A stretch of 62,644 nucleotides of DNA, the filler included, from Asterionella formosa (taxonomy: Eukaryota), in the NCBI GenBank assembly GCA_002256025.1. It is 5 parts of 5 records of this genome, joined end to end, with 100 filler letters (N's around TTAATTAATTAA, not from the genome) between each part and the next. Parts side by side here need not be neighbours in the genome. Positions count along the whole stretch, not along the records: positions 1 to 28,485 come from NKIB01001217.1; 4 more parts are not named here. One strand, 5' to 3'. The position numbers were made by a program, and so were the translations under genes. Of this stretch, positions 3,577-57,030 are shown piece by piece (position 1 is the stretch's first letter; each line of letters starts with the position of its first letter). The notes under the pieces are model-generated. The model saw only the letters and a list, made by a program, of their open reading frames with translations, had not been told where the DNA came from and ran no database searches.

Positions 3577-4253
3577 CGCTTCGTAGCAGCCAAAGTGCCG
3601 TTTGCTGGTTTGGGTACAATCAATCAACGAAAGCAATAAGTTCAAATACTCGGTAGACTATGTGGTGGAGGAAATCATGGCAATCGACGAATACTTGTAG
3701 TGGCAACTTGATATAGCTATTTGTAATCGAACCATAGATATAACAAAACGGTTGGACGAAAAAGTAATACTGCGGTTAGTAAGGTATACAAGTATGTACA
3801 CAAATTACTGGTAATGTACCTCATAGATAAACTACCGGTACCTGGTAGACTACTGTACTGATATGTTTGGGAGTGTAAGTACGTATTCATATTTGCATGT
3901 TTTTCGTTGATTGTCTTCTGTGTTGCTAGCGGTCTCCTGGTTTGATAATCTGCCATGTGAATGAATGATTATATATTGTTGTACATGTATTAGTTAGTGC
4001 AAGTACATTGACATATGTATGTGTGTCAGTATACATACAAGAAAGTATCCATTTTAGAGTCTCACCGGGAAACCGGTACTCACCACTGTCGTCCCAATTG
4101 CTGATGATCGAATGGGTGTGGCATAAGAGACGAGACCTTCTGTTACAGCATCGTCGTATGTATCGCAACTACTCCTAGTTTCTTATAAACCACTGACTCC
4201 ACTTCCCGTTCTGCCCTTTGGTGTGAATTAATATTACGAAGGAACGATCGATC

Positions 4254-6081
4254 ATGCCAGCCAATTTCATCATTGAAGAAGCTCCCTCCGCTCGCTCAAC
4301 CTGCAAGAAATGTAAAGAGAAGCTGCCAAAGGGAATCCTTCGTATTGCCAACATTAGCGAAAGTAGTGACTCCGACATGGTGTTCAAGAGGTGCGTAATG
4401 GCACAGTGTGGTCCTGTCTTGAAGGGCTGTGTACCGTCATGCATATTTCAATTGTATACAACACAGTTATAGCCTCATCTCTCTCACTCCTTCGAGATTT
4501 TTTTCACGTTGTATATGGCATCTTTTTCTGGATCCGATCCTCCATCCATTAATTTAACTATAGTTACTACCATACTTCATGTTTCAGTATTCCTAAATCT
4601 CAGGAGATCAAAGACGTGGCAGAATGGTGCGATGCTATACTTGTTGATGAAACGGAACATCAGATTATGAGTAAGGAAAAGGAGCGCGTCAAGATTATTG
4701 CTGACATCATGTCCAAAATTGGGAAGAGTGAGAAACCATCATCAGTTGTTACTTCTAAAAGTAGTAGTAGTACTACTACTTCTTCTAAAGCTACTACTAC
4801 TACTACGAATACAAAGCTTGAAAAATTCAAGGCTGTGGCTGAGCAAGAGAGAGGTTCGAAAAAAAAGAAGAAGAAGCATGCAGATGAGAAAGACGCCAAT
4901 GACGAACCTACCTCCAAAAAGGTAAAATTAACAAAAGAAGAAGAAGCGGAATATGATATTTACAGTATGTACAGTGACATGAGTGTCGATGCACTTCACG
5001 ATGTTTTGCGGTACGTTCACTTTGAATAAAGTTTTTTTTAAATGATGGACATTATGGTTCCACTCAACTGATGTTGTTCCATATTTTTATTCAACTTCTC
5101 AGTTGGAATCTACAATTGGTGGCCGGGAACAAATCAGTCTTATTAGCTCGCGTCACTGATGGACATTTACGAGGTCGCTTGACTCGTTGTCCCCTATGTA
5201 CGGGTGGGAAGATCGCCATCCGTGATGAGGTTGGTATGGATGCATCATGCAATGGATACTTTGATGAAGACAAGGGCATTCGGATCAGCTGTTCATTCAA
5301 GGCACCAGTGGAGAAGTGCCCAAGAATTCATCCATGGTTTGCTGAGAAACCAACAGATGAAGAAATGGAAGATATTAAACAGAAGGATCTGGATACAAAG
5401 GCAGGCAAGTCAGCATCATCCAAGTCGTCCACAGAAGCCATCAAGGTACTGTTGGGCAAGATTAAGAAATTGGAATGGAAGACAACCACAAAGGCAGATA
5501 TCAAGGCTTCCACAGCAGCAATGGTTGCTATCCTGAAAGATGGTGAAGTTACAAAGGTAGATCTCCCAGAAGGGCGAGAGACCATGGCTGTGGGAAAGAT
5601 TGTTGCTGCAAATCAGGTATGTAGATAGGTATTGTTCAAATATGCAGCTCATTTTTTATCCCAATTTAGCTCACTAAAGTTTCATTGATTGCAGAGCAAA
5701 TCTTCAGAAGAAGTATTCACCATGATTGTTGAACAGTATGGGTTTGCTGATGATTCAAAGGCTAATGATGCACAGAGAATAGAATTGTTGGAGACCACTT
5801 GCATCATACCTGCCAATGCTCCCATTTTGATGGTCCTCTTGGAACTCAAGAATGTGTATGATAAAGAAGGCAATTCTCAAGCTGGTAGAACCTACAACCA
5901 TGTTGCAGACGCCATCAAGAATCTTGACTTTGAAGTTACCACTGCGAATGTTATGGCCATGTCCAAGGGCAAAACAAAGGTTGCTGGGATTGGGAAGTCA
6001 AGTGCAGAAAAGATCAAGGAGTTTTTAGAGACAGGGAAGATTACAAAACTGGAAGAGAAGCGTGCCGCACAAGCTGTTTAA
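4254..6081 (+). CDS. PARP-type Zn finger + PADR1 (Zn3) + PolX/pol-beta 8-kDa HhH domain protein; exons 4254-4390, 4564-5010, 5103-5616, 5695-6081
   Basis: Three GT..AG introns (4391-4563, 5011-5102, 5617-5694) join in frame. Motifs: APSARSTCKKC...LRI...YYHTSCF (zf-PARP); LLARVTDG..G.LTRCPLC.GG...C.GYFDE...SC (PADR1); GIGKSSAEKIKEFLETGKITKLEE (HhH_8). Confidence 0.85.
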
Positions 6082-8704: not shown

Positions 8705-8960
8705 TACATGAAGTGATCATCACGTAAATAAGCCTAGTTGATTTTGAATGCATCACATGAATTAGATGAACATATCAAAATGCTTACTTGAATATATCTA
8801 TATATTATCCGAATACATCACACTAATTATTTGATCAGAGTATCATGCATGCATTCCTGATCATCACTATATTACGTGATCACCTTCACGTAATTATTTG
8901 AAATACTTCAATTAATTCTGTAATTTAGTTCACATTGCCTTATAATTTTGTTCACGTAAT
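8705..8960. repeat. Dispersed AT-rich repeat, also at 56712-57037
   Basis: The shared sequence GAAGTGA.CATCAC.TAAATAAGCCTAGTTGATTTTGAATGCATCACATGAATTAG...TATCATGCATGCATTCCTGATCATCACTAT occurs at both loci. Confidence 0.85.
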
Positions 8961-10623
8961 TCTATAATATAGTTCACGTAATGTATTAAATTTGTTTACA
9001 TAATTTAAAAGTACTATCAAATAATGTTGATTCTTAATTCAACTACCGGTATTTCACATTACATTGGAAACAAATCTCGATATGCAATCAAACAAAGCTG
9101 TTCTATCAGAATGGAATCTTCAGTCTTGAGAAGGCGCAGGCATTATGAGACATCTGTAAGGACATTGCAAGACAAAGAGAAGCCATTCATTCAGAAGGGG
9201 AAAAATATTCACTCTTGAACAGGCATCATTGTACAAAGTTGAAACATGAATGCATCACACACTGGCTTCCTTCTTGTCCTTGAAATGACTTCTTCGTTGA
9301 CCTGCAAAGATTTACATAACAACAGTGTGTCAGTATTTCATATGATAGAACTAGCAACAGCAGAAAGCAACACACACATGTAGTAGTATTCAACTGTTCC
9401 TTGGGGCAGTCGAATTGAAGCAACAAACCGGCAACAACCAGGCAGCTCACTGATGCGTTCATAAGAATGCTCCTGTTGTGAAATGGACGGCTAAAATGTA
9501 AAATAAAATAAATGTAGACAACAATAACAGAACCATGTGATTTATCGCTCGCTTTGCTGAAACAATGACAAAAACTGAAGATTGAGCTTACCTTAAAGGC
9601 CTCCATTGCGGGTCTCCATTTTGTATCATTTCACCCTCTATCACTCATGCTTTCCAAAGAACACTACTTTTTTGAAAAGGCCTGTTCAAATGTCAAATGA
9701 ATTTTGAAAACAACAGCATATCAGTATGAGTTATCCTTCACTTGGTGATATGATAGCAAAAATAGTAAGCAAATAAATCTTACCTTAAAAGCATCGATTG
9801 CTTACGATCTCAGTGTTGTGTCATTCCACCTTCTGTTGTGGTTGCAACAAACAATATGTGAGTTCTTGGCTGATGAAGGATTTGTTAATGGTGAGGCGCT
9901 GAAAAGCTAGAAGCGGGATACTGCTTTTAAGGGTCGTCCCCATGTTGAAAACATTTTGTGCACAGTGGTGGTTAAATGTTGTCTTTATGAATTCAGAGGG
10001 GCTCAAAAATCCTGGCGCAGCCATGACTTCATCTTTGTACCAACAGAACCTAGCTACAATCTACACGAAAAAACCTGGCGCAGTCTTGTTACTTCGTCGG
10101 GACAAATTCTGATGCTACAAGTGTGACCTAAAACAAATATGACAAGAAGGAGAGGACACAGCCAATGGTTACTCTTAGTATACCGGTATTCACAGTGCGA
10201 ACGCCATAGTCTATTGTAACAAGGGAAATACGGGAATGCTGGTAGGGCAAAGCAACCTACAGTTCCACAGTACGCACGTAGAAATGAGTACAGTTTCACA
10301 GTACGAACGGTATAATTCCTATTGTAACAAGAAAGGGGAAGACGGAAATACTGGTAGGGCAAACCTACAGTCTCACACTTGAAACAACGACCTGGTTCCT
10401 ACCAGCCAGAAGTACCTGGTGGTACCATACAATATAGCTATTTGTTACCATGTCTGAGTGCAGGGTCCAAAGACCCAAGGTACCAGGTACCTGGTACCTG
10501 GTAGCCCTCGTACCTGGTACTGGTAGTATGTATCATAGCCCTGTGTAGGCCTTCGATACCGATACCTGGTCACAGGTACCTGGTGAAGTATCTAACTAGA
10601 AGTAGTAGTATTTGTTGAATATA

Positions 10624-10769: not shown

Positions 10770-12250
10770 GAAAACCTTTTACCTATGAAAAGGTTTGATA
10801 CAACGAATATTAATTCGTTCTGTAATATGCATAGTGCATTGAAAAGTAACTGTACCATTGGCATGGACTTGAATTATAGTATAAGGACCTTGTCCACGAT
10901 CATCCAAAGTAGTAGGATTATCCAAAAGTATTAAAATCTTATCGCCACTTTGTAATCATAAGATCGACGACGGAAATTAACACGACGTAAGCGTTCGTCG
11001 ATGATAACTTGTCGACGTTGATGTATCAATTGTAAATCTGTAATCAAAGGAATATTTAATATCATATCATGTTGAAAAACCCATCACCTGGTGAAAGACG
11101 TAATATACTATGAATAGTAGTTCGAGCTGCATATGATGCAGTTGCAAAACATGTATCCACAATGTTTTGGGCTTGAAATTCATTCATTGGAGGGTGAGCC
11201 TTCAACATAACTCGTAGACTATTACTGATAGATTGATGTAAACGTTCACAGATGGCATTTGCTTGTGGATTCTTGACTGTAGTAGTCACATCTTTAATTC
11301 CATTCAACACCAACATGTGTAAGAGAGGAGCACCAGTAAATTCACCTCCATTGTCATGTATACAACGTTCTGGACGGGGATATCTGGCTAACCAATCATT
11401 TTCAAATTTCAATGCAATATATTCTGATGTTTTGTTATTGATAGATGAAATTTCTGCCAAATTGATGACCGTATCAATACAAGTTAGAGCACGAAATTCA
11501 ATTGCTTAAGTAGCCACTGTTATCTTCCATGGACCAATTAAATCTAATGCGACTTCTGACCATGGTAATAATAATGCATTCCTGGGTGGAAGTTCACCAA
11601 AACCAGTACCAGGTAATTTTGTACGTTCTTGACATGCTTCACATACTCTTACAATATGTTCCACTCTTGTTTTTAATGTAGGATGATAAAAATGTGTAGC
11701 GATTGTAGCATTTAATCTTGTCATACCCACATAAGCTAACATCTGATGATACCAATTAATAATAGAATCCAATAATGATGTAGGAATAGCAATACGCCAA
11801 GTATCTCCTGGATTCTTCACAAAACATATTAAAAATATATCATGAAAATTGATAGAAGGAAATTTTAACGGATGTGTTTGTTGGTTGAGAATCAATTGTA
11901 TATCCAGCAGTTGTCTATCATGTATTAAATTATAATCCAGAGGATATTGAATATTGTCTATCAAGATTGGATGATTAAGGAGACAGGTATTTTGCTTTTG
12001 CTTTGGAAGGGGGAGATTTTATATCAAGTCTATCAGATTCGATAGACTCAATTAGACGTTCTGAGGCAGTAGAAACAAGATCTACCACGGGCATACAAGC
12101 AACACGATCTTTACTTCTCGGAATGGTATTGAGATAAGATGAACTGGCATCAACTATTTCGTTTTCACTCGCCTGTGTCAATGCATTAACGGAGAATACA
12201 CGACGTCGGTGATCTTTATTTGGAATGACAGGTATAACGAATTCCATCAG
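10770..12250 (-). mobile_element. Ty3/Gypsy LTR retrotransposon remnant (integrase, frameshifted)
   Basis: Zn-binding region (WYH...C..CQ), DLIGPW, HDNGGEFTG, PQANAICERLH, and a C-terminal GQGPYTIIQVHANGTVT (GPY/F) motif. Multiple frameshifts. Confidence 0.9.
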
Positions 12251-14776: not shown

Positions 14777-16499
14777 TATGCTATTTCTCAAACTTGGTTC
14801 TGATTTTGTATATGATAATGTAAATAGCACTGTTGGTTTTATGGTATCATATCTAGACAGCATAAAATATTATATGTAGTGGCTGATGATTCATTTCATT
14901 GTAGCTAGCAACACCTGATTTTAAGATCATCAAACTTTAAGGAAGACAACAACAACAGTCATCTAGTAGTACAATGTCTTCAAAAAACCATAAAAAGGTT
15001 CATGGAACAAACAAGCGACATGTGGCAAATTCTGCTGGTATGGAACAAAGAAGCAAGTACCAAAATAAGTTAACAAAGAAAAAGCGAATTGGTGATTATC
15101 CGAACAAGGAACCCAATTGTCGATGGGGACACCATCAGCTACTAGTACAAAGGATCCCGTAATTGATACTGAAAGCGATGATGACGTTTATTTTTCAGAT
15201 GTTGATACAAGAAAAATGGCTCCTGTCGATGATACCATTAATAACTCCCCGATGCAGATGGACGACATGGTACCATATCATAAATTTTCTAATCGCACGG
15301 ACCAACAGGTACATGACAAAATGAGGGAAAAACATTTTGCACTTGCCAAAGGATAATATCATTTGGTCAATGAACTCAATCATTACAAAGGTCGTTATTG
15401 TAACAAAGGTTAGGTTGTGAGTTTAATTTTCAAGACCAAGAAGTTTTGCTGTGAACATGTAAGTTTGAGGTTATAGTTCGTGAATTGCAGGTAAAATTGA
15501 ACCATCAACTGTAACAAAGGTTGTGAGTTTTATTTTCAAGACCAAGAAGTTTTGCTGTGAACATGTAAGTTTGATGTTATAGTTCGTGAATTGCAGGTAC
15601 TGTGAAACAGAATATCAATCAAATGTGCTTTTTTCTGGCTGGTGGTCCCAAAAAAGAATCAAACATCCCACCATGCCTATCTGGTCCAAGTAGTATGAAA
15701 GGCATTTCCAATCACAAACAGGATTGGTTTGCCCAATGTTGCCTAACTCGGCTATACACAGTGAAACCGGAGTTAGGCAAAGAAGTGGAGAGTGACCCAG
15801 AGCTTACCGATTTCATATGGAATGGTTCTGATGCACTACTTCTGATGAATCAGACCATTGAACGTACCAACAATGCACGTTTAGATTATATTCAATCAAC
15901 ATTTGGTGGCATGTGCATAAAAAAGTTGAGAGAATGTCAGAATGTATTGAATAATCAATTTAAAGGAATCTTAGGTAAGTTCTTGCAGGGAGATGCTCTG
16001 CCCGAAAGCATGATGTTTTGAGTCGGTTATTATATTCTTATCAAATATGTTTGAAATAAAATGGCTAACATAATTCATGACACACCAGCTGGTCTAACAG
16101 AATATAACTTCCAGACTTGCTGCTAAAAGGAAAATTCCGACTGCAACAAAAATATTTGTGTTTCAATCCAGATACTCATGAAATTTCAGAGAAGCAACGA
16201 TATTCGTCATTCTACTGTTTTCGTCAACATTGGTGGGAAACCACTTATCAAATCATATCATAGATAGTAGGAAAACATTGATGATGCTCTATACTACTAG
16301 TAGTGGTGCCTGTACTGTATGTAGCGGTATACCTCCATTTTTACTACTATGGTGGAGTGATAATTTCACGACTCTGTATTGTCCAGCACAGCATGATCCG
16401 AATGATGCTAAATTTATTATTATTGATTTATTTTCATTCTAACCATTTCATATCCTAACTTTGTTATCATTTGAAATTTGCAATGTCTTCTTTGCGGAC

Positions 16500-18830
16500 A
16501 TTGCAATGGTGTTATCTGTGTAACTACAAATTTCGGAAGAACAAATATCCATCTGAGTGGTCTCACAATCGAAATTGTAGCAACAGTGTTTTTGAGGACA
16601 TGGTCACTGTCAACATTGCATGCAAGAACAACGAGTTCCTGGAATACATAGTGAAACTATGTATTGCGGTAGTGCATCGAATCGTTCAAGGAAAGAAGTT
16701 AATGATGGCAGTGTAACTGCTGCAGCATTTAGGGAGAGTAGACAAGAAGAAGAGATTATGTGTCCTTTTCTTGAATCAAGTGACCATAATCATCCATTTC
16801 ATGACGACAGCGACGAGTCAGTATATAACAATATTCAGTCACAACAAGACGAACAATTGAGGCTTAACACTCTCCTAGGATTGAATTCAGAAACCATGAT
16901 GCAATATTCAGATTTTCAATATCACACCGGCTTTCACCCTGAAAATGCATTGGATATGCCCCTTCCTCCTCAATTTCAATTTCCAAGTAAACATTTCCTA
17001 AACATCCATGTATTCCTTAACGAGAATTGCCTTCCACCAGTTTACTTTGATTATCTAATGAATACAATTATCGGACTATCCCTGAAGAATGGACATGTTT
17101 TTTTAAGAAAGAAAATCTCCAGATGTTCCAGAGATCATCTCCGATCATAAACGTATCACTGAAACAACAGAATCTGCTTTTCTTGATCAAGAGCAACCGA
17201 AGAAACGGGCAAAGACCAAAAAGAAGCGACACACGCACCAGTTATCAAAAATGTCTACTCTACACTGGCAAAAATCAAGACCCAACACTTGTAACAGTAC
17301 CAGAAATGTAGTTTTTTTCGAAAATATACTTCGAACAAAGTGGCTGCTAGATATATCAATAGTCATTTGGAAAGGCAAAGCGATCGTGATATTCCAAAAT
17401 TGTCATACAGATCTGGGATGACAGCTTTGTCAAAAATGTCAGGGCAAGAAATTCCCGGATTATGTCTGTGAACTTTTTTTTCATTTGGTGGAATGATGGG
17501 TCCAGAGAAGATGCACCTAGAAAAGGATTTCACATTGCTATTAAGGTTATGTATATCTATCAATGACACTTTATTCATACAGCAGTATACATCAACATGT
17601 ATTGATATTTTAGAGGAAAGGGTTAAGAGATTTATGTTAGTTACTAAGATTATGATTGGTCCCCAACGGGAAATAATATCTCAAATTGGCTTCTTACAAA
17701 TGGCAAAATTTCATGGATTGATACATTACCCTCATCTGATTAGGGAGTTCGGATCGCCTGCCTTTTAATTTCTTTGGTGGATAATTGGAGTCTTTTTTGA
17801 AAGACAAATTGAAACGAGTGACCCAGTAAGCGTGTCTATGGACAATTACATCGATTAAAGCATGACATTTTAACAAGGTCATATGAAACAAGGCAGTTTG
17901 CCTTGGCACGAAGAATTGTTTTTCCAAGTGATTCATTACATACAGAAAAGGATGTTGCCTAGTACTAGTACCTCGCCTGATAAAAATTTGGGAATATCGC
18001 CTACCAAGATCCATGCACCATCCCTTCCTGTTAAATTTCAAATCTCTGCTTCATTATCAAATGGTCTATGGAATTTAGCAGGTGTCCCTAATAAGATTGG
18101 GCATGTATCACGGAGTAAGGATGCACCCTTGTCTCAATTGGTTCATCCTGATATACCGAAGGGGGCCAACTACGGTAAGAGCATTGCGAATTCAGCAATA
18201 GAAATAGCAAGAATTAAAAGTCTTGAAGATGGGGTTGGGCCTGTTTCCATTGTAATGATTGACTTTCATTATCATGTTAAAATTGAAAGTAACCTTCCCG
18301 GCCAAACTACTATTTTCAGATGCCATCCGAAATGGAATAGTGATTCAAATGCAGGAATCTCTGGTGGTCATGAATGGTTTGACTGGGTTGAAGTGAACTG
18401 GGAGAAAGTAGATCATGGATCAAGATCATACACAGTTCCAGCAAAACTAATTCTTTAGGGAAATGTTATTTTACTCCAACACAACAACCATTATCTTAGC
18501 GTGTATTCGTTCCTTGAAAAGTTCAACTGAAATAAAAATTCATAAACGTATTTTTTTTACAAGAGGGGACACGCACCTTATGCAATGATACAACTGAATT
18601 GAGCGTTGCTTGTTGTTTTTTATAACATGCTTTTGGCAGCATTTGTTGTATTTGCTTTGAAACCACCGAAATCAAGGAAATCTCTGAAACCGCAAGAAGT
18701 TCTGGAACAGATAGAGAAAGATAATTTTTATAGGGCCATGCCTCCACGTCGCTCATTTATGGAAATCATTCGTGTGGGACCAAAAACTAACAAGCGAACG
18801 TTAATAAAGATACAAGAATAATATAAATGG
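16500..18830 (+). pseudogene. Plavaka-like transposase, disrupted
   Basis: KFHGLIHYPHLIREFGSP..F.GG.LESFLKDKLK, IFRCHPKW and WFDWVEVNW...VPAKLIL; stops and frameshifts. Confidence 0.7.
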
Positions 18831-18989
18831 TAATGATAATATAATTTCACATACTAGTTAAGCTATTAAGGAGGCTTTCACAAACTACAATGTCCTATCA
18901 AATGATGACATTGGATGATCCCAATGGTCCATTATTTCTTCTTTTTCACTCCCAAAGAACCTAAGATGGTCCTTCTCGTTTCGTCCGAA

Positions 18990-21060
18990 ATTTTTGTTCT
19001 CAAATTTTCAACTGCAGATCGATATGAGCGAGTCTTTAAACTTATTCAATTTGATTCCAGAAGGGCTTTGATCAGATACAAAATTTTCTTTCAACATTTT
19101 GTCAAATTTTATGCATCCAGAAATGTGGCCAAGATAGGCATAATTTTTCCATTTGAAGGGAGCAACTATTTCATTCCTTTGTTGGATCATGGATTTTACG
19201 TAGACAACATCATCCTTCTTGAAAGAAGAACTGCAAGGAACTCGTTCAAATACTTCGTTCAAATACTTCGTTCAACATTTTTAAATCTAAATAGTAGGTC
19301 AGATTTTTGTCGATACAAAATTGAAGTACAGTTAATTCCAACTGAAACATATCCTCACGAGAATTTGTTGTTGTCACTTGAGGCCATACTGTTCCAAGAT
19401 GAAAGTATGTTGACTTGGTCGGTGGGTCAAATGTAACAGATAACAAATTGTCTGTTCGATCTGTTGCTACCACCTGACGTTTTAAAGCTTTCCAGCACTC
19501 AGTCTCCAAACGGAAATGTGCCCGCCGTTTGCCAAGAAATTTGGTTTTGCCATTCCTTTCTAATCGCAATAGAGTTTCCAATACTTTCAAAATTGTAAAT
19601 GGTCCACATGACCATTCACTATCATCTTCTGGTTGAAATAACATGGAATCATGTTCAGTGGCCATAATGATCTGCAATGGTGCCGTGCTTTGGTGCCAGT
19701 ATAGAAAGATTCCGATAAACCAATTTCTTCAGATATATGGGATTCTTGTGGAAGATATCCTGTATCGGTGCATAACAATGATTCCAATTATTTGGTGCAT
19801 CCAGGGATGATGCAGTACTTACAGGCAAGGTGAAATACTTAATCATAATGTTCATCCAAACTTGCATCTTTTCCTGGATCACGGACTTGACATAATCCAT
19901 CATTTATAGCAAAAAGATAATGCACAAAATTGTTGTTTTCCTCCTCATCTGATCTTTTTCAATACACAATTAGCACATAGTTACTGTCATGATGAAGTGG
20001 ATGACAATCACCTTGGTATATATACGGTTTGTTATTTATTACCCCTTTTTCTGGATTCTTATCCAGATCAATTATAACCTTTACATCAGTTGGATGAAGT
20101 TCATGAATTATATAATGGATCATAGAGGTAATTGTTTCAAGGTCCCAATGTGCAAGATCTTTAAAGTTGTCCATTCAATTTCGGTAAACTTAAGGAAAAT
20201 GCCGTTTGCTTTGGCATAATAAGCAACTCTACACATTTCACATGCCGACTCTTCACAAAAGTAGCTAGCTGCCTTCGGTATTGTTTTCGATGAATTTACA
20301 AAGAAATCCTAATCTTTTTCTTCCCTGTATGATCAGGAAAAAGATTCAATTTTGTGCTTCAAACTTCGTTCCTGACTCAGTGCATCAACTGCCTTAGCCA
20401 GCATGGTCATCACATCTCTTTCTGTATTGAATTCGAGCTCTTGATCAGCCAAGCGCAGACTTTTTCTTGAATATCTTTTCTTTTATAAATGCAATAGTTT
20501 CTCTGCTTTCATGATGGTCATCTTGATGTTCTGGACGAATAGTGAGACATATTTCTTGGTTTTGCAACTTTTCAACCATTTCTACTTCAGAAGTTATGTC
20601 TCCCACATTTCCGCCGGGTTTTTCATTGATCGCATGAATTTGTTCATCAAATGAATGAGAATCACTGGGTTCTTCTTCATTATCAGCGATTTCGGGAGAC
20701 TGAGCAAAATACGACACTGGATGGTGGAACTGCGACTCTGTAGGAATAGAATCTTCATCTGCGAAGAACAAATGTTTGGGTTTCCTTGGCTCTTCGAAAA
20801 CAATCTTTCCTTCTTTTCAATCTCTGCCAATATTGTATCGGCATACTTCATTATTTTTTCTGGAGTATTACAAATCTTTTCAAATTCATCTGATCTTTGA
20901 GTGTATTCAAAGGAATCTTCGATTGATTTCATAACTTTCTTCATCTTTTTTCTCAAAACATAAAATCGTGTAGTGTAAACGATGGAAGTAAGTCATGTTT
21001 CTTGTTTGACTGATCCTTTCCATGAAATCCATTAAAACCATGAAATGCCATTTGGAAAGT
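18990..21060 (-). pseudogene. TE-borne ORF with Ulp1/C48-like protease remnant
   Basis: Fragments YFTLPV...NNWNHCYA..QDI and FQPEDDSEWSCGPF match the His and Gln-x-Cys motifs of Ulp1-like peptidases. The N-terminal part is duplicated at 34080-35200. Confidence 0.55.
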
Positions 21061-22833
21061 TGTCAAAAGGCCAGAAGACTATGATGTAAAACAGTTGAAG
21101 GGAAACGCGGAGCTTTCGTGGCGCTTGTTGAGGTGCAACTGGTGTGATGGCAACTGAGTGTAGTATTTGTTGAACAGAGCACAGTGTAACATGCATGTTG
21201 CGCCAGCATAGTGTTTACACAATACATATGCCAGTATATATAGGTTGATGATACAGATACTGGGCGGGTTTTCAATGAGCAAACAACAATGAAGAGAGCC
21301 ACTTGTCACTCTATTGATGGTAACAAAGATGTGGATACGTTCAACAGTGAATACAAGTACAGCATCCCAAATGTGGAAACAAGCAATATGAAAAAGAAAT
21401 TGTAATCAGAATCATTCTATAACTATAACTATATGAACAGCAGTCTGTTACATTTTCGTATCGCCTTCTATGCTGAATCTCAATAGTAGATGTAGTATCA
21501 TCATGTGAGAATTGAAAATGTCAACAAGAACAAGTAGAATGTGTTCATTTATGAGTTGATTGGCAAGATTGTAATGCTGGTGGTTGACCAAATGGATTTA
21601 CTATGTGCACTGTGTGCGGAACCATTCCGAGTTTGAATGATATCTTCTCTGTAAACTCTTAATTGAATGATTATGAACATAGGTTCACTGTACATGACGA
21701 TTACTCAAAGATATAATGATCACTCCACCAAAAATTGAACATGTTTTCGCAAACAATCATTCCACTTGTCATTGGTAGTATTTTGTTATTGTTGCAAAAA
21801 TAGGCGTCAGGACTGATGAAGATGATGAGCCAAGGTAAATTACTTTAGCTGGTACATTATCCTACCAAGAAATTTAAATACAGGAACCTAATGGAAAAAA
21901 TATAGTCAAAGGGGCGGTTTTTGTTTAAAAAGGAGTGCATTTATCAAAATTATTAGATGATATAACGAAAAATTATGATCAGATGATCATAATCCTATGA
22001 TCATGCATCATAGGAATATGATGGTTTTCATTTGCAGATTTGATGCTGTGGCCAATGGAATCTCAATGATCTGACCATTGGACATGAAAGCTGGAGGAAC
22101 ATCATGATAGTGGAAGGTGCGGCATGATGAATATATGTTTTTAGTGAAATCAAAAACACATATCCAGTTCTGGTTTGCCACCTTGTCCACAACATGCAAT
22201 CTACCATCCTGGTTCCACTCCCAACCCAACATTTTTGTATATTCCTATCAGCAGCCATTTTTCATCCTCCACCAGTGCCCCAACAACAAATGTGCTACTC
22301 CCACGCTACTCCTCCTGCTCCTCCTCATCATGGATACTATCACCTGCTGCCTCTGGCCAGCAGTCAACCAGCACCAGCCAACTCCAACTGCATCCTCAGC
22401 ACCCACCCACCCTTCCACCACAACAAGCAGCATTTATGATTACCCAAGCTCCTCCTCTGAATTGAAAAATTCATTTTCTGCCTGTAGTAATGTGACAGAA
22501 AGAAAAAAGAGATTCAATTTCTGTGACCTTGAACAAGGTAAACCTTTTTTTTGTTCATGATTTTCTCATCCAATCTAGATTCCTTTTCTCTTTTTTCTCT
22601 CTCTCCCTACTTCAATAATCATCTTGTTGCTTACCTTTGTTGTTGATGAATCATATTTGGGCTAGAAAGAATGATGCACAATTTTCGACATTTGATAAAT
22701 TGAAAAAACCAATATTAACTGTTATTCTGGCTGTTATGCTAAAATCATCATTGTATTACCAAAAATTTGAATGTGCCCCATATTGCCAATAAATAAAAGT
22801 TAGTTAAGAACTTACTTAGAAATACCCAAATGG

Positions 22834-25800
22834 CTAGAAAATAATTTGAGCAGGTTTTGCTGTAGTAATTGCCACACTGAAGGAGTCATTCACAGCCAAG
22901 TTGCTAAGTGCTGCACAACCATAGCGCTGCATGTCAGCATTTGATGAATGAATCTTCATCGCATCCAGAATTGTAGTGATACCCCCTGCTGCAGTAATTG
23001 CCTCACTGAAGTAGTCATTCACAGCCAAGTTGCTAAGTGCTGCACAACCATAGTGCTGCACATCAGCATTTGATGAATGAATCTTCATCGCATCCAGAAT
23101 CGAAGTGATACCTCCTGCTGCAACAATTGACACCTTGTTGTTGTCATTCAAAGTTAAGTTCCAAAGTGCTGCACAGCCATTACATTGCACATCAGCATTG
23201 GATGGATGAGTGTTCATGGCAGACAGAATCATCATGATACCTTTTTTGTAAACAATCTTCTCCTTGTTGTTTTCATTCTCAGCCAACTTCTGAAGTGCTG
23301 CACAACCATAGTGTTGCACCAAAGCATTCTTTGGATGTTCTTTCATTGCAGACAGAATTGTAGTGATACCTCCTGCATCAGCAATCAACACCTTGTAGTT
23401 GTCATCCACAGACAAGTTCTGAAGCGCTGCACAACCATAGTGTTGAACAGAAGCATTGTTTGAAGGATTCTTCATAGCAGACAGAATGATAGCGATATCT
23501 TCTTCAGCAATCATCACCTGGTTGTTGTAATTCCCAGCCAAGTTTGCTATCTCCATGAGATTTTTTTCTTGGATGTCAGCATTCTGCTCATTCCTTTGCA
23601 TCTCTGAAAGAAGTTCAGCAATTCGAGACAAAATAGAAGTTGCAGTAGGCCCTCTTGTTGCAGCAATAGTCACATTGATGTTGTCATTCACAGCCAAGTT
23701 CTGCGGCTCTGGAGCTGCTATCTTTATTGACCCACCTATGGAAATGGGCTCATAGCAATTGCCACTGCTTGGAGTTGGGGAAGAAGGATGCGCTGCATTT
23801 GTTGTTGATGTTGAGATTGGCTGAACAGTGTTGCTTTCTGTTGGTTGGCGGTTCTTGTTGTCATTATTCAAAATCAAGTTGTGAAGCTTTACAAGACCAT
23901 TTTGTACAGTAGCATTGGTTGAATGAATCTTCAATGCAGACAGAATTGTAGTGATACCCCCTGCTGCAGTAATTGCCTCACTGAAGTAGTCATTCACAGC
24001 CAAGTTGCTAAGTGCTGCACAACCATAGTGCTGCACATCAGCATTTGATGAATGAATCTTCATCGCATCCAGAATCGAAGTGATACCTCCTGCTGCAACA
24101 ATTGACACCTTGTTGTTGTCATTCAAAGTTAAGTTCCAAAGTGCTGCACAGCCATTACATTGCACATCAGCATTGGATGGATGAGTGTTCATGGCAGACA
24201 GAATCATCATGATACCTTTTTTGTAAACAATCTTCTCCTTGTTGTTTTCATTCTCAGCCAACTTCTGAAGTGCTGCACAACCATAGTGTTGCACCAAAGC
24301 ATTCTTTGGATGTTCTTTCATTGCAGACAGAATTGTAGTGATACCTCCTGCATCAGCAATCAACACCTTGTAGTTGTCATCCACAGACAAGTTCTGAAGC
24401 GCTGCACAACCATAGTGTTGAACAGAAGCATTGTTTGAAGGATTCTTCATAGCAGACAGAATGATAGCGATATCTTCTTCAGCAATCATCACCTGGTTGT
24501 TGTAATTCCCAGCCAAGTTTGCTATCTCCATGAGATTTTTTTCTTGGATGTCAGCATTCTGCTCATTCCTTTGCATCTCTGAAAGAAGTTCAGCAATTCG
24601 AGACAAAATAGAAGTAGCAGTAGGCCCTTGATATATGGATGCTTTGGGACTTCCACCACCAACATCAGGATATGTTTGACTCACAAGTCGACCCAATTCT
24701 TTAACCAATTCTCTAGTCTTTGGTCTCTTCGTGCGATTGTTCTGAATGCAATGAATGGCTAATGTACACACCGAGGACAGAATTCCATCTTCCCATTCCT
24801 CTGCACAAGGATCAACATCCTCCACCAATTTTGGAATTGCCAACTTCAATGCCTCTGCTGGAGTTCCTTCAAAATCGATTGGGAAGTAGCGTTTAAAGAA
24901 ATCTCCCAACTTCACACTATCATTTTGGAGGCAGCCTGTCACAAGCTCAATCATGACAATACCAAATGAGTAAACATCACATGATGCTTCATATTCGTTA
25001 CCCCTGGAATGATTTGGACATATGTAGCCCGGTGTCCCATGTACTCCATCACCTGCTGTGTAACAAACTGAAGAAGGAATTGGATTGGTTTTTACTGAGC
25101 TACCCTTACGCACAAACTTGGCTAGGCCACAATCAACCAGCTTGGCAGTATAGTTCTGATCAAGGCAGATATTAGATGACTTGATGTCACGATGAAACAG
25201 AGTGTGGCCGTCCATTTTTGTAGTATGAAGGAAGTGGATGGCAGAAATAATTTCGTTCATGATTTTAAGTCGGATCTTACTTGAGAGACTTGATCTTTTT
25301 TGTTCACTCTTATAGAATGTATCAAGTGACCCATTGGATAATAACTCATACACCAGGTATTGATCAGATACCACGTGTTGATCAGATAAAACAAGGGACA
25401 AATGATAGCCATACAAAGTTACAATATTGGGGTGTCGGAACAACTTTAATACCTGAAACAGTAAGATAGAAGAATGAGAAACATAAAGACTTGAAACAAC
25501 AGGCAATAGATGATACTACGGATGAGCTTACCTCCAATTCTATTTTAAAAGTCTCTCTTTTGAAAGTCTTCCTAATTCCTTTTTTCTGATCTTCCAAAGA
25601 AAATAAATTGAAACGAACACATTTCACAGCAAAATACCGATTGTCATCCTCGCCTTTGTAGACAGCACCAAAAGCTCCTTGACCAAGTTTCAAGGCATCA
25701 TCAAAGTTGTTTGTACAATTATTAATGAATTCAACAGGAAGCTCGATTGGTCTTGAATTCACATTGTCCATAGCTTCCTTCATTTTCGATCGACCAATGG

Positions 25801-27097
25801 AAATGAGATCAGTTGGATTGCTACTGCTTGGTGTTGGAGGTGTTGTTGAGATTGGTTGTAAAATAGAAAGTGCTCTTTTAGCTTGTTCAATCACACCAGC
25901 ATTGGCTGAGTGATATCGCATAGCAAACTCAATTGCGACTTTTCCACCAGCATTGGAAATCTTCAACTGGTTGTTGTCATTCACAGGCAAGTTCTGTAGT
26001 GCTACACAACCATATCTTTGGATATTAGCATTCTCTGGATGTTTCTTCATTGCAGACAGAATCGCATCGATACCTCCTGCTTCAGCAATCATTGCTTGGT
26101 TGGTGTAATCATTCTCAGCCCAGGTTCCAAGCTTCAAGAGACCATCTATTTGAATGTCAGCTTTCCACTCATTCTGTTGCATCTTTGAAACAGTTGTAGC
26201 AATCTGAGACAAAATTAAAGTGGCAGTAGGCCCTTCTGCTTCAGGAAGTGGCACATTGTTGTTGGCATTCGAAGGCAAGTTCTGATGCTCTGTAGGTGCC
26301 TTCTTTATCACTATAGAAATGGATTCAGTGTGATTGCTATCGCTTGGTGTTTGCTTTTTTGGGGAAGTAGCTGTCTTCTTTATCGACTCATCTATGGACA
26401 TGGATTCAGTGCGATTGCTATCACTTGGTGTTTGCTTTGTTAGGGAAGAAGGTTGTTGTTTGCGGTTCTTGTTTGCATCAACAAGTTTTTGAATATCATT
26501 TAGTAAATAAGCACCAATTGAATTACGACAGAGAATAAGTTTATTCAAGACATTATTGACCTTGAGAGCCTCTGCAATGGCCTTGGCGCCGTCATTACCA
26601 ATTGAATTATCTCCGAGATCAAGTGTAGTCAAGAAAGTATTGTCCTCGAGAGCCTTTGCAATGGCTTTGGCGCCATCATCACCAATTAAATTATGATCGA
26701 GATGAAGTCTAGTCAAAACAGTATTGACCTTGAGTGCATCTGCAATGGCCTTGGCTCCGTCATCACCAATTGAACTATCAAAGAGAATAAGTTCATTCAA
26801 GACAGTATTGACCTTGAGAGCCTCTGCAAAGGCCTTGGCTCCGTCATCACCAATTCTATTGTTGAAGAGATGAAGTGTAGTCAAGACAGTATTGACCATG
26901 AGGGCCTCTGCAAAGGCCTTGGCTCCGTCAACACCAATTGAATTACTATGGAGATCAAGACTAGTCAATCCAGTATTGACCTTGAGAGCCGCTGCAATGG
27001 CCTTGGCTCCGTCATCACCAAAACTATTGAGAGAAAGGTAAGTCAAACTTGGATCATTCGCTTTCAACCGTTTGACACCTGCTTCCCAGCTAGGCAT
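22834..27097 (-). CDS. RI-like LRR + ARM + Pelle/IRAK-like kinase + ARM-repeat protein (~1394 aa); exons 27097-25532, 25452-22834
   Basis: 28-aa LRRs (IGDDGAKAIAEALKVNTVLTTL.L). Kinase motifs GQGAFGAVYKG, FAVK, HRDIKSSNI, DCGLAK, GTPGY and DVYSFG. Intron 25453-25531 (GTAAG..TTTCAG) joins FKIELE|VLKLFRHPNIV. ARM repeats (AGGITTILSAMK.H..NA.VQ.YGCAAL.NL). Confidence 0.9.
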
Positions 27098-27526
27098 TGT
27101 CAATATAGTCTTGGATGTAATGGAAGTTGTTTATAGTGATTGAAGAGCGACTTCTTTTTTGGTTCTTGTTCGAGTGAAAAGTGTTTTTTGTTTTCTGTGT
27201 TGACACTCCTTTTCTCGTGCTGCCAAAATAGTGTCTCGACAACTTGTCGTAGAATTCTACGCAACTCATTCCTCAGGCATGACATGTATACCTTCATCGT
27301 CGTCAATTCTGATTGATTACAAACTTAAGGTTGCTGCATTTGAACCCCTAGCTCGAGGTAGGGTTAAAAAATAATATTCAGTCAGACTAATCAAACACGT
27401 ACTTTTCAAGTATAAAATAGATATCTATAACGCTCAACGAAGCTTTCACCAATACACACCCTTTCCATACAGTCTTCGGACAAAGTAGGGGTGTTGGTCC
27501 ACTCTATATATCGTCAGTATGTAGGA

Positions 27527-28485: not shown

Positions 28486-28585
28486 NNNNNNNNNNNNNNN
28501 NNNNNNNNNNNNNNNNNNNNNNNNNNNNNTTAATTAATTAANNNNNNNNNNNNNNNNNNNNNNNNNNNNNNNNNNNNNNNNNNNN
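28486..28585. other. Artificial contig linker (N-TTAATTAATTAA-N)
   Basis: 100-nt spacer with stops in all frames. The same spacer occurs at 57039-57138, 58909-59008 and 60779-60878. Confidence 0.98.
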
Positions 28586-33670: not shown

Positions 33671-33939
33671 TTTTGATTAATCATAAAGTATATTTGTTAA
33701 TATAAATATTCGACTTAAAATGTATACAGTAAAAGCAAATGGTTAATATGATAGTATTATATTGTGAATAGGATCTAAGTATATGGATGCGCTGATATAT
33801 ACATCATCAAAACATGAATTATGATATTGATTGATGCATATCAAATACTGGTATCCTCCACAACCAGCCATCACGTTCATCGTCGTGTCGTTTTTCCTTG
33901 TGATATAGTATATTATGAAAACACTATAGCTCGTGTCGC

Positions 33940-36900
33940 TGGCGCAACATGCATATTACACTGCGCTCTGTTCAACAATTACTACACTTGGTTACCATCA
34001 CACCAGTTGCACCACCACAAGCGCTGCAAAAGCTCCGCATTTCAATTCCACTGTCTTACATCATAGTCTTCTGGCCCATTGACAACTTTCCAAATGTTAT
34101 TTCATGGATTTCATCGAAATGATCAGTCAAACAAGAAACATGACTTACTTCCGTCATTTACACTACACGACTTTATGTTTTCGGAAAAGAAGATAAAGAC
34201 ACTTATGAAATCAATCGAAGATTCCTTTGAATACACTCAAAGATCAGATGAATTTGAACAGATTTATAATACTCCAGAAAAAATAATGAAGCAAGTATGC
34301 CGATAAAATAGTGGCAGAGATTGAAAAGAAGGAAAGATTGCTTTCGAAGAGGAAACCCAAACAGTTGTTCTTCGCAGATGAAGAGTCTATTCCTACAGAG
34401 TCACAGTTCCATCCGGTGTCGTATTTTGCTCATTCTCTTGACATCGCTGATAATGAAGATGAACTCAGTGATTCTCATTCATTTAATGAACAAGTTCATG
34501 CGATGAATGAAAATACCGGCGGAAATGTGGGAGACATCACTTCTGAAGTAGAAATGGTTGAAAAGTTGCAAAACCAAGAAATACGTCTCACTATTCGTCC
34601 AGAGCATCAAGATGGGCTGAACATCATGAAAGCAGAGAAACGATTGCATTTCTAAAAGAAAAGATATTCAAGAAAAAGTCTACGCTAGATCAAGACCTCG
34701 AATTCAAGAAGATCCATGCAGACAGAGATGTGGTGATGCTGGCTAAGGCAGTTGATGCACTGAGTCGGGAACAAAGTTTGAAGCACAAAATTGAATCTTT
34801 TTCCAAATCATACATGGAAGAAAAAGATTAGGAATTATTTTTAAAATCATCGAGAACAATCCCGAAGGCAGCTAGCTACTTTTGTGAAGAGTTGGCATGT
34901 GAAATGTGTAGAGTTATTATGCCAAAGCAAACTGCATTTTCCTTGAGTTTGCCGAAAACACATGGACAACCAAAATTGTGGAAAGAATTGTACACATGTA
35001 CGCACCCCACAAGAAATATGAAATTACGCCTCTGTATTTTATGAAGTCAAAGGTATCAAAAAATCATCTTCAGATTTTAAAGATCTTGCATATTGGGACC
35101 TTGAAACAATTACCTCTATGATCCATTATATAATTCATGAACTTCGTCCAACTGATGTAAAGGATATACTACATTTGATCTGGATGAGAACCCAGAAAAG
35201 GGTAATAACTTAACTAGTATGTGAAACTATATTATCACTATTATTAATATTATTCTTGTATATTTATCAACATTCGCTTGTTAGTTTTTGGTCCCACCCA
35301 GTTGATTTCCATAAATGACGTGGAGGCATGGCAACATAAAAATTATCTCTCCATATCTTTTCCAAAACCTCTTGCTTTTTTAGAGATTTCCTTGATTCCT
35401 GTGGTTTCAAAGCAGGAACAACAAATGCTGCCAAAAGTATGTTATGAAATTCAACAACGCTCAATTCAGTTGTATAATTGCATAAGGTGTCTCCTCTTGC
35501 AAAAAACATACATTTATGATTTTTCATTTCAGTTGAACTTTTCAAGGAACGAATACACGCTAAGATAATGGTTGTTGTGTTGGAGAAAATAACATTTCCC
35601 CAAAGGAGTAGTTTTGCTGGAACGGAACTTTGTAGGAACTTGATCCATATCCCTTCTCCCAGTTCACTTCAACCCAGTCAAACCATTCACGACCAGAGAT
35701 TCCTGCATTTGAATCATTATTCCATTTCGGATGGCATCTGAAAATAGTAGTTGGGCTGGGAACATAACTTTCAATTTTAACATTATAATAAAAGTCAATC
35801 CTTACAATGGAAATAGGCCCAACCCCATCTTCAAGACTTTTTATTCTTCCTATTTCTATTGCTGAATTCGCAATGCTCTTTATGTAGTTGCCCTTCTTCG
35901 ATAAATCAGGATGAACCAATTGAGACAAGGGTGCATCCTTACTCCGTGATATATGCCCAATTTTATTAGGGACACCTGCTATAGTCCATTGACCATTTGA
36001 TGATCTGCCTTGATCAAGAATAGCAATGTCTGTTGTTTCCGTGCTTTGAAACCAAGAAAAAAAACATATTGTTGATATAATCCATTACCACCCCTGAAAT
36101 CGCAAATTTTGTTGTGCTCTTCTGTATCACTAATGATCATTCCAATCTGGAAATAAACTTTTGTCATTCCAAGACCATGAACCCAAATATCGTATTAGTA
36201 CTTGTTTGGATCTTCGAAAGGCAACAATAGAAATCCTGTAACAGAATGGTATAACTTGAGTCTACACAAGGACAACACATCACCAGATAACTTATTATTC
36301 ATTTGTTTCTCCAGATCACTGACTTCAATGTCTGGCAAAAGAGTTACCAATTGCCATCCATCAACTTTGTTCCTTCTTTCTAACGTTAAGTTTAACATTG
36401 TCAACAAAAACGGATGCTTGGAATGTTTCATTTGTTTATCAATAGGTGAACCATCACTGAAAACTGCTAGGGCAACAAATAAACACCCTGTCTTGCCTTC
36501 AGCACTCCATTTTCTGATGCAGGAGATTTGTTGAACGCATTTTCAAACCAAGTCGCGGAAGTTACTTTGTCATGTATGCGTTCTCCACAAGTTGTAAGTT
36601 TCACTTGTGGGTGATATAAAAAATGTTGCATGATATCGGAATAATAATGGGGTGTGTGTGGGATGACCATGTTTGAATTGTTGTCAATCTGTATTTGTTT
36701 GGTCAAGAGTTGACCACCAGCTAATGATGGTGGAAATGAAACATCCATGCGTTTCTCCAAAGTCTGGTAGGATTGATCTTGATACCTTCTATCAAAATAT
36801 TTCATTGCCTTTGCCTTGAACAGCCATTTCATTAGTGATCAAAGTACACTGGTGGAAGTTTATTCTCGTTAAGGAATAATATGAGTTCTAGTTCTAATTC

Positions 36901-37075
36901 GATTGGATGCATGTTTAGCAAAGGTTTACTTGGAAGTTGAAATTGAGGAAGGAAGGGGCATTTCCATTGCATTTTCAGGGAGAAAGCCGGTGTGATCTTG
37001 AAAATCTGAATATTGCATGGTTTCTGCATTCAATACTTGGAGAGTCTTTATTCCATTAGCAAGTTCTTTCTTTTT
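33940..37075. mobile_element. Plavaka-like element, copy 2 (inverted, internally deleted)
   Basis: 33940-35200 is the reverse complement of ~20040-21205. 35205-37075 (-) carries transposase pieces, including TSATWF, VFSDGSPID, HPFLLTMLNL..R....GWQLVTLLP and LKLYH. Confidence 0.75.
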
Positions 37076-55766: not shown

Positions 55767-56889
55767 GGCGGCGGGAAGGGTGGAACGGGAAGGATAATCA
55801 AGGAACTTGTGAAGTGAATCAAGGGATGAACATAAAGGGAGTACCGGTATTACAAATGCGGTATGATGATGGTCGTTCCTGTTCCAAACATTCGGACAAA
55901 TATTTATAACAACACGATATCATGCTGGTCAGCTTTATATTACGGTATACCTGTGACGGTAAAATTCGGACTTTCCGGAACTCCCTCGTAATTCTAGCTC
56001 CATCCACATCAACATATTGTGTTTCAAATTAGATGCGACTAAAAGGGCAATTAAGTTTGGTGGTAAAAAAATCTAACTTCTTCTCATTGTTTAAAGCTAT
56101 ATAAATTTCATCTCGTCGCAGCAATCAAGAGAAAGGAAATGAGGGGTCAATCGAAAACGATTTCTTTCAGTTGTCAGCCAATCTTGGCCACTGGATAATT
56201 ACAATGCTGCAAGGATTATCTTTTTGAACTGTATTCATGGACCTGAAGTCTCAGTTTCTCAATCAGTGGCAACCACACTATAAGTTAATGAGTGGTGAAG
56301 TGCAAAGCTAGAAGATGCAATCACATTGGCCAAGTCTGCAAACTTACCTAGTTGGGAACATCTCCTTCAGATTCACATTGCTAATGCCTTTCCTGCATCT
56401 GTTCCTAGTAGTACTGGAACTGCTTTCGAGGTGGGAAACAGTACTAGCATTTCCTGTACTGGCCATTCAGATGAATTAACTTTCATCAATAAAACATTGA
56501 ATGCTGATGTTGCTGTATGCTCTCCTGATGACAGAAACTCATCATCTGAGGAAGAGGAGAATGAAAATACTGGTAGCATTTGTGAATGATTTAATAATTA
56601 TATATTTAATTAGCTCCACACAATTTCATTTCTTTCGATTGCCTGTCTGGTGCAGTAATGAACTAAATTCGCTCTCCTATTTATATAAGCTTACATCTAA
56701 GCCGCGTATTACGTGAAGTGACCATCACATAAATAAGCCTAGTTGATTTTGAATGCATCACATGAATTAGTTGAATACATCAAAATACGTAGTTGAATAT
56801 ATCTATATATTATCTGAATACATCACGTTAAATATTTGATCAAAGTATCATGCATGCATTCCTGATCATCACTATATTATGTGATCACG

Positions 56890-57030
56890 TTCACATAATT
56901 ATTTGAAATACTTCACATAATTATTTGAAATACTTCACATAATTATTTGAAATACTTCACATAATTATTTGAAAATACTTCACATAATTATTTGAAATAC
57001 TTAACATAATTCTGTAATTTCGTTCACATA
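56890..57030. repeat. 22-bp minisatellite (TTCACATAATTATTTGAAATAC) x~5-6
   Basis: Direct tandem copies just before the contig end. The paralog at ~8885 has a single unit. Confidence 0.9.

Follow-up and report, generated by a model that had tools for sequence, protein, structure and literature searches.

The 62,644-nucleotide stretch of Asterionella formosa DNA analyzed here (the window; five parts of assembly GCA_002256025.1 joined end to end) carries on its minus strand, at 22834..27097, a gene for a 1394-residue protein that combines leucine-rich repeats (LRRs), armadillo (ARM) repeats, a kinase domain and further ARM repeats. The gene is intact and spliced. Its sequence leads us to lean towards the view that the protein is a cytosolic single-chain sensor-kinase for non-self, drawn from a family with fast birth and death of copies. 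The role of an innate-immune receptor, which an earlier note on this DNA had suggested, is one that we infer from these features.

Gene model, transcripts and protein architecture

Two overlapping minus-strand reading frames (25382-27130 and 22834-25515) are joined by a 79-nucleotide intron to give the 1394-residue product. Exon 1 (25532..27097, minus strand) holds 522 codons with the start codon, the LRR block, a Ser/Thr linker, an ARM block and the N-lobe of the kinase. Exon 2 (22834..25452, minus strand; 872 codons and the stop) supplies the remaining kinase, ARM block A, a linker and ARM block B. The phase 0, GT-AG intron (25453..25531, minus strand) is conserved in the family: it lies at the same codon, with a size of 76-82 nucleotides, in 46 of the 47 loci (this gene counted) that allowed the kinase-exon start to be positioned. 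Six in-frame GT/AG pairs were possible at the frame overlap, and five of them were dropped, since 25531/25453 alone agreed with both the paralogues and the RNA. Contigs from four of 17 listed RNA runs were examined (X1, X3, X6 and X7; the RNA status of X3 is a guess), X7 being the only one chosen from runs X7-X15, which shared few words with the stretch. A 79-nucleotide skip at the intron was seen in contigs of X1, X3 and X7 and not in those of X6, and such joints could come from a very close paralogue or allele. One record of X7 (polyA) matched 120 letters of exon 1 with 0 differences. The metatranscriptome runs with the best match to the stretch were lake and freshwater samples, and the named relatives are pennate diatoms, which points to a freshwater diatom as the probable host. 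That the two frames are spliced together, as the earlier note had assumed, was confirmed. Two separate genes were rejected on account of the intron conservation among paralogues and the RNA skip, and are also countered by an uninterrupted relative, P0004, whose frame continues across the joint. Several paralogues begin with the same N-terminal cassette as exon 1.

Pfam matches on the spliced product (LRR_6, Pkinase and several ARM families) bore out the proposed LRR-ARM-kinase-ARM order in one protein; all blocks given here lie on the minus strand, and all LRR and ARM repeats sit inside the two continuous reading frames. The LRR block (26465..27097; residues 1-211) consists of seven ribonuclease-inhibitor (RI)-type (LRR_6) repeats of 26-28 residues plus caps (PF13516, E 1.7e-32). 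It was modelled as seven strand-helix units with a predicted local distance difference test score (pLDDT) of about 90, and all seven repeats differ from one another at four variable strand/loop positions. A Ser/Thr/Pro-rich linker that is predicted to be disordered (26231..26464; pLDDT <50, residues 215-289) leads to a pre-kinase ARM block of three repeats, cap counted (25859..26230). This is followed by the pre-kinase linker with the kinase N-lobe (25532..25858) and, behind the intron, by the kinase hinge and C-lobe (24691..25452), the kinase spanning about residues 450-776. The repeats had been described as NLRC3-like; the RI/LRR_6 class was found, while NLRC3 was not singled out, the best PDB matches of the LRRs being ciliary RI-like proteins. 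Best PDB matches of the ARM block repeats include Vac8, and the best ARM Pfam match was ARM_LRRK2. No transmembrane segment or signal peptide was evident, in agreement with the earlier note, in a hydropathy scan, which is not a dedicated predictor: the 19-residue maximum was 1.45, in kinase helix F, with 0.51 at the N-terminus. The protein is therefore presumably cytosolic.

The many ARM repeats reported behind the kinase are present, with about half of them stemming from one duplication. ARM block A (23941..24628) has five clear repeats, cap counted, and block B (22834..23653) has six: 22966-23653 is a tandem copy of block A, identical at 687 of 688 nucleotides, followed by one more repeat and the stop. 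The linker between the blocks (23654..23940) contains a degenerate repeat and then a relic of a paralogue LRR-end/pre-kinase linker, being 76% identical over some 140 nucleotides to paralogue pre-kinase linkers. Because it resembles such a linker, yet leads into ARM repeats with no kinase behind it, we read it as a probable recombination scar. An assembly artefact was judged unlikely as the origin of the duplication, since RNA-run contigs cover all four junctions: kinase-to-A (X1 record 3), A-to-linker (X3 record 10; in X1 and X7 the A side has only 30 letters), linker-to-B (X1 record 2, X7 record 26) and B-to-end (X6 record 17). No single record of the four runs spans the whole gene.

Placement and motifs of the kinase

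Of the PDB sequences that the kinase matched at E <=1e-15, all 41 are RLK-type kinases of plants or IRAKs, as told from their names or their place in the list. When the N-lobe was searched alone, IRAK1 was the top PDB match and RLK/IRAK kinases accounted for 18 of 20 matches, the other two being GCN2-type. The uninterrupted relative P0004 is 69% identical to the kinase, and all 36 listed Foldseek matches of its model were RLK/IRAK. Support for the RLK grouping was lacking in an initial FastTree run (0.35), and IQ-TREE runs resolved it. In a tree of 90 chosen rows, the Shimodaira-Hasegawa-like approximate likelihood-ratio test (SH-aLRT) gave 99 for the RLK/IRAK grouping and 99 for one branch holding the family together with diatom and environmental relatives. 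In a careful tree of 41 chosen rows, this branch (100/99) joined plant RLKs and holozoan IRAKs at 99/95, outside the plant group. Members of the RLK/IRAK group were plant RLKs, a Capsaspora 'TKL/IRAK' protein and an Artemia IRAK4-like protein, and the named members of the kinase's own branch were diatom proteins. Raf/MLK-like kinases of the same genome (three labelled via PDB) and unnamed TKLs served as outgroups. The trees held one animal and one Capsaspora protein and no RIPK, LRRK, STKR or tyrosine kinase rows; the ingroup references were matches to the query, and most 'RLK' rows owed their label to motif and position in the tree instead of a name. One locus (L074) had no PDB match at 1e-30 and was left unlabelled, and the clusters from an Atlas feature search were of generic kinases, for the most part from plants, and were given no separate weight. 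By phylogeny and matches, the kinase thus groups with the RLK/Pelle/IRAK clade, as had been proposed, and not with Raf/MLK-like kinases; a placement outside the clade was not found.

RLK/Pelle/IRAK kinases are recognized by a Tyr gatekeeper and by a TN(N)F segment ahead of the glycine loop. Both occur here: the gatekeeper is Tyr557 (Tyr in 29, Phe in 7 and His in 1 of 37 loci of this genome), and the TNNF segment aligned with IRAK1 and RLKs. The glycine loop, the beta-3 Lys (Lys492), the helix-C Glu (Glu520), the HRD Asp (HRD 609-611), the Asn and the metal-binding Asp are all present, so that the description as an arginine-aspartate (RD) kinase with DCG in place of DFG stood up. The DFG Phe is replaced in DCG (629-631), a motif found in 33 of the 37 own loci, three others having DYG and one being unread, and in 71 of 105 non-window branch matches picked by that motif. 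Given this distribution, we regard DCG as a mark of the branch, not as decay of this copy. The APE motif reads CPN, with Asn for the glutamate, which is absent from all own loci with a readable motif and present in 28 of the 105 non-window branch matches. The kinase had been called complete; this is true of the catalytic set, and the missing APE glutamate had been overlooked. Judged by its motifs, the kinase is likely to be active. Two activation-segment cysteines are kept in the branch (residues 630 and 667; window 25134-25020), one in DCG and one in CP-x; they could allow redox control, by analogy with CPE-motif kinases.

The kinase exons themselves evolve unevenly. Across 25 of them, model M0 gave an overall ratio of nonsynonymous to synonymous change (omega) of 0.72. 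When the codons were divided into classes, 49% fell at 0.11, 48% at 1 and the remaining 3% at 4.8 (twice the log-likelihood difference, 2dL, 88). The median pairwise omega was 0.78, and this copy against its paralogues gave 0.73-1.19. Such high values speak against uniform constraint and fit relaxed copies or a surface under attack. An alternative to a sensor-kinase is a bait or scaffold, in which a weak or inactive kinase acts as decoy or adaptor, an invader protein attacks or binds the kinase surface and a separate protein signals. Plant kinases of the Pto/ZED1 type and IRAK2/3 are precedents for decoys and adaptors. The DCG motif and the loss of the APE glutamate point in this direction, as do the five apparently positively selected kinase sites of the class at 4.8, two of which lie directly after the altered APE motif. 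Furthermore, five IRAK-like kinases of the oomycete Phytophthora infestans are predicted to be inactive in the portion of PMC3019232 available to us. Nevertheless, we hold this explanation to be improbable, because the catalytic residues listed above are kept here and in most paralogues, DCG is stable across the branch, and some plant kinase matches likewise lack the APE glutamate.

Paralogue family and diversification of the repeat faces

A fast-evolving, domain-shuffling family had been postulated, and the census indeed recovered dozens of paralogues that diverge in sequence and vary in domain order; the single-copy alternative was not found. The kinase exon has 56 genome matches at E <=1e-10. 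Of these, 55 are close (58-100% identity, on 51 contigs), a figure that is not a copy number because some near-identical short contigs may be alleles, and 12 of the 56 contain stops. The LRR block and the ARM block gave at least 167 and at least 224 genome matches, respectively (150 candidates scored each). At least 10 domain orders were found among the 29 loci with a kinase exon of at least 235 residues, the 18 of 47 loci with shorter kinase exons being omitted from this census. They include LRR-kinase, ARM-kinase, kinase-LRR, LRR-kinase-ARM, LRR-kinase-tail and LRR-ARM-LRR-ARM-kinase-ARM. RNA-run joints without the pre-kinase ARM block suggest that other architectures are transcribed too. 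The present copy is, to judge from its nearest relatives, a mosaic of different paralogue ancestries: its pre-kinase ARM block is closest to contigs C12938 and C13121 (83-84% DNA identity), its N-lobe to C5148, and the first half of its C-lobe with the ARM cap to C14393.

Outside the near-identical group, the best matches of the kinase reach at most 46% identity. For comparison, a Raf-like kinase from this genome, taken as a control, reached 61-82% in most of 120 listed matches, many of them from named diatoms. Branch relatives (26 proteins scanned) carry ankyrin, LRR, Kelch, CHAT, NB-ARC, HA or MLLE domains. No one-to-one orthologue with the LRR-ARM-kinase-ARM order was found in word-limited searches, and when long proteins with both the pre-kinase ARM block and the N-lobe were sought, one of 1369 candidates matched, in the ARM part only, which is weak evidence. 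An ordinary conserved signalling kinase (for development, nutrients or abiotic stress), whose repeats would be fixed adaptors, can draw on the many non-immune roles of RLK/Pelle kinases, RI-type LRRs and ARM repeats, and on ciliary proteins and Vac8 as best PDB matches of the repeats. However, the lack of such an orthologue in these searches, the rapid divergence, the module swapping and the surface diversification described below leave it very little room; the paralogue census and the selection pattern largely refute it.

Several paralogues and relatives show further architectures. A RING-like Cys segment and a tail of about 250 residues follow the kinase in L040:2830-4569, L027:717-2372, L044, L045 and L068. 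Both are without a Pfam match and are common to many diatom relatives, including Fragilaria; a Roco-like identity of the tail domain was considered and dropped when Pfam gave no match. Two further members of the kinase's branch, P0149 and P0186, are fusion proteins, one with a CHAT domain and the other with CHAT and a weak match to NB-ARC. These fusions hint at a connection with cell death driven by proteases. In L050, L039, L043, L069 and L066, exon 1 opens with a short Cys/His-containing N-terminal cassette before the ARM arrays. L052 (contig C13145) has tandem kinase pieces, the second of them broken, which suggests a two-kinase arrangement.

Selection on the repeats was assessed family-wide, with 260 distinct LRR units and 310 ARM units pooled across the fetched loci. 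The variable LRR positions are 21, 23, 25 and 26 of the 28-residue unit; in the model, 21 and 23 fall on the strand and 25-26 on the loop behind it. The variable ARM positions 32, 36, 39 and 43 occupy a single face of helix 3 and the end of that helix in the model. RI-type LRRs bind on their concave strand face and ARM repeats in the helix-3 groove, and we take the LRR strand face and ARM helix 3 selected here to be these ligand-binding faces. In a tree-free test, diversity at codon sites 1 and 2 of the variable LRR positions was 2.8 times that of fourfold-degenerate sites (bootstrap 2.5-3.1), with 0.26 for the framework; the ARM units gave 1.7 times (1.6-1.8) and 0.28. Codon models M1a/M2a, run with our own code, choose sites by themselves. 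On two random 60-unit LRR subsets, M2a yielded omega values of 5.2 and 4.3 (2dL 120 and 96), with sites 21, 23, 25 and 26 in both subsets and position 28 also in the second. On ARM units, it yielded 3.3 (2dL 99) and sites 32, 36, 39 and 43. Neutral simulations for the LRR set reached a 2dL of 2.1 without recombination (n=1) and of at most 18.7 with recombination (n=13), with an omega of about 2.1 at most. The LRR strand face and ARM helix 3 thus appear to be under diversifying selection, well above the recombination controls run for the LRR set, and the excess of amino-acid change on repeat surfaces, for which a check by dN/dS had been proposed, was found.

This pattern also bears on the idea of a largely neutral, recombination-prone repeat family that multiplies in repeat-rich regions and whose copies mostly have no selected function. 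Many copies are truncated or bear stops, the pairwise kinase omega of this copy is 0.73-1.19, and its downstream flank is a dispersed repeat (see below), all of which would be expected of such a family. The explanation is nevertheless disfavoured, and we think it still less probable than a bait: purifying selection clearly acts on the frameworks of the repeats and on half of the kinase codons, the variation is concentrated on the binding faces and far above neutral simulations, this copy is open across 1394 codons and spliced, and none of the 25 contigs with the flanking repeat is among the kinase contigs (26 candidates scored).

In a sensor-kinase of the favoured kind, the repeats would detect variable molecules of foreign origin, the likeliest being proteins from parasites or other invaders, and the bound ligand would relieve a fold-back inhibition or cluster chains. 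The RD kinase would then autophosphorylate and trigger a defence response, which may be cell death. A comparable activation is known from IRAK4 and the cytoplasmic RLKs of plants, which are switched on by proximity and mutual phosphorylation of the activation loop. New specificities may arise by point changes at exposed positions and also by recombination between shared linkers and repeats inside the large exons. Several points weigh against this reading. The positions of the tree-free test were chosen after inspection of the data, and its neutral references were 9 sites (LRR) and 7 noisy sites (ARM); the codon tests used our own code on repeat units with unreliable trees, recombination alone was nominally significant (p <0.05) in 6 of 13 simulations, and selection was measured across the family, not on this copy alone. 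The high overall kinase omega also fits relaxed selection, DCG and the missing APE glutamate across the readable loci of the genome make activity no more than likely, and the RNA-run contigs show presence and splicing, not expression level. Finally, diversifying binding faces occur in mating and self/non-self systems too.

The last point leads to a variable recognition other than anti-parasite defence, namely mating compatibility, colony or allorecognition, or the management of bacterial partners, which would use the same logic of repeats plus kinase. The sequence results show diversifying recognition and not its target, and allorecognition is the reported function of fungal NLR-like genes whose internal repeats are highly conserved. 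On the other side, a cytosolic location suits intracellular invaders better than partner choice at the cell surface, the spread of the family over dozens of loci, with broken copies among them, is more in keeping with an arms race than with a single compatibility locus, and relatives carry CHAT and NB-ARC domains. We therefore consider such functions unlikely, if the most serious of the alternatives to a sensor of invaders.

Relation to known systems and genomic surroundings

With the RLK/Pelle/IRAK kinases (PBL2, BIK1 and RIPK; IRAK1/IRAK4; the Capsaspora 'TKL/IRAK' protein), the kinase shares the clade, the Tyr gatekeeper and the TNNF segment. It differs from them by its own branch, by DCG and the absent APE glutamate, and by sensor-type repeats on both kinase sides in one cytosolic chain. 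Unlike in animal IRAK/Pelle proteins, the N-terminus is formed by LRRs, and the Pfam scan gave no death domain match; unlike in plant LRR-RLKs, no signal peptide, ectodomain or transmembrane segment is evident, and the kinase falls outside the plant group. LRRK2/ROCO proteins likewise are cytosolic single chains in which a TKL kinase is joined to ARM and LRR domains, in line with ARM_LRRK2 as best ARM family, but the present protein has no Roc-COR, ankyrin or WD40, a different order and a kinase that matches RLK/IRAK. A Roc-COR tandem was not found by Pfam, and repeats, linkers and kinase account for all 1394 residues. NLRs (NLRC3, NOD2, NLRP and fungal NLRs) are also cytosolic, with RI-type LRRs and near-identical repeats with few hypervariable positions; in contrast, neither exon has a NACHT or NB-ARC match in Pfam, and the kinase stands where the nucleotide switch would be. 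By phylogeny and fold, the protein is thus best classed as a member of the RLK/Pelle/IRAK clade that is not an NLR, a ROCO protein, a plant RLK or a true IRAK.

Diatom proteins named 'serine/threonine kinase' (Fragilaria crotonensis, Amphora, Epithemia, Pseudictyota) fall on the same DCG branch. In Fragilaria, the kinases of this branch are expanded, and several share the RING-like segment and tail with some paralogues of the present gene. These diatom relatives carry ankyrin, Kelch, LRR, CHAT or NB-ARC domains, are at most 46% identical, and no LRR-ARM-kinase-ARM order was found among them. It is thus conceivable, although we put this forward only tentatively, that diatoms possess an intracellular immune-receptor class of their own, with an IRAK/Pelle-clade signalling core and interchangeable LRR, ARM, ankyrin or Kelch sensors, joined in some lineages by CHAT or NB-ARC modules. 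Such a class would take over the task that NLRs fulfil, but with no nucleotide switch. If so, it would underlie, at the molecular level, the resistance of freshwater diatom strains to particular parasites and their hypersensitive death, and the link of IRAK/Pelle kinases with defence would extend beyond plants and animals.

The closest conceptual precedent is found in Ectocarpus, for which Zambounis et al. (PMC3341825) describe, in the text available to us, exon-shuffled, positively selected LRR and TPR receptors. Among these LRR-ROCO, LRR-kinase and NB-ARC-TPR candidates, a 24-residue LRR corresponds to one exon. The present gene instead has 28-residue RI-type LRRs and 43-residue ARM repeats within two large exons, and an IRAK-clade kinase as signalling domain. 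According to the same text, which contains neither 'Pelle' nor 'armadillo', the Ectocarpus LRR-kinases show little duplication and no obvious pseudogenes. A description of the present kinase family was not found in open-licence PubMed Central and bioRxiv. The expanded IRAK/Pelle-clade branch is placed in diatoms here, whereas the kinome survey PMC3019232 reported, in the part seen, none in Thalassiosira pseudonana. Secreted LRR proteins of Nitzschia putrida (PMC9054022, as excerpted) represent a different class. A 2023 review (PMC10643281) reports, in its accessible part, strain-specific chytrid resistance in Fragilaria and Asterionella; it states that conclusive evidence of host-parasite coevolution is lacking and contains the hypersensitive reaction only in a reference title. 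Strain-specific chytrid resistance of freshwater diatoms has long been known, and a family with measurable hypervariable positions makes the coevolution question testable. Since this copy is complete and has both repeat types, it should be a good test article.

The gene's own contig occupies positions 1-28485 of the window; genes to the right of 28485 lie on other contigs and were discarded as neighbourhood context. Downstream of the gene lies a dispersed repeat (16254..22039, strand not assigned) with matches of 75-95% identity on 25 other contigs, a number that is to be read as at least 25 contigs, with 26 of 2350 candidates scored. No informative Pfam match was obtained for it (59 flank frames), and it shared no contigs with the kinase family among the 26 candidates scored. 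A further, inverted copy is seen at about 33900-37000. The transposable-element debris mentioned in the earlier note amounts to this unclassified repeat and an integrase zinc-finger fragment at 11509-12018 (Pfam), and the statement holds only to that extent. The artificial spacers (28486-28585, 57039-57138, 58909-59008 and 60779-60878) each consist of 44 N, a 12-base AT word and 44 N; because they join separate contigs, frames and repeats that run across them are artefacts. On the plus strand, 4227-6078 contains zf-PARP and HHH_8 pieces, suggesting a multi-exon gene of the DNA polymerase X or ligase type. Related 22-nucleotide tandem arrays occur at 8857-9005 and 56862-57033, on different contigs, each after a shared stretch of about 230 nucleotides. 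A separate RI-type LRR protein, 37% identical to the LRRs of the family, is encoded on another contig (52310-53560, plus strand) and looks like an ordinary divergent-repeat gene.

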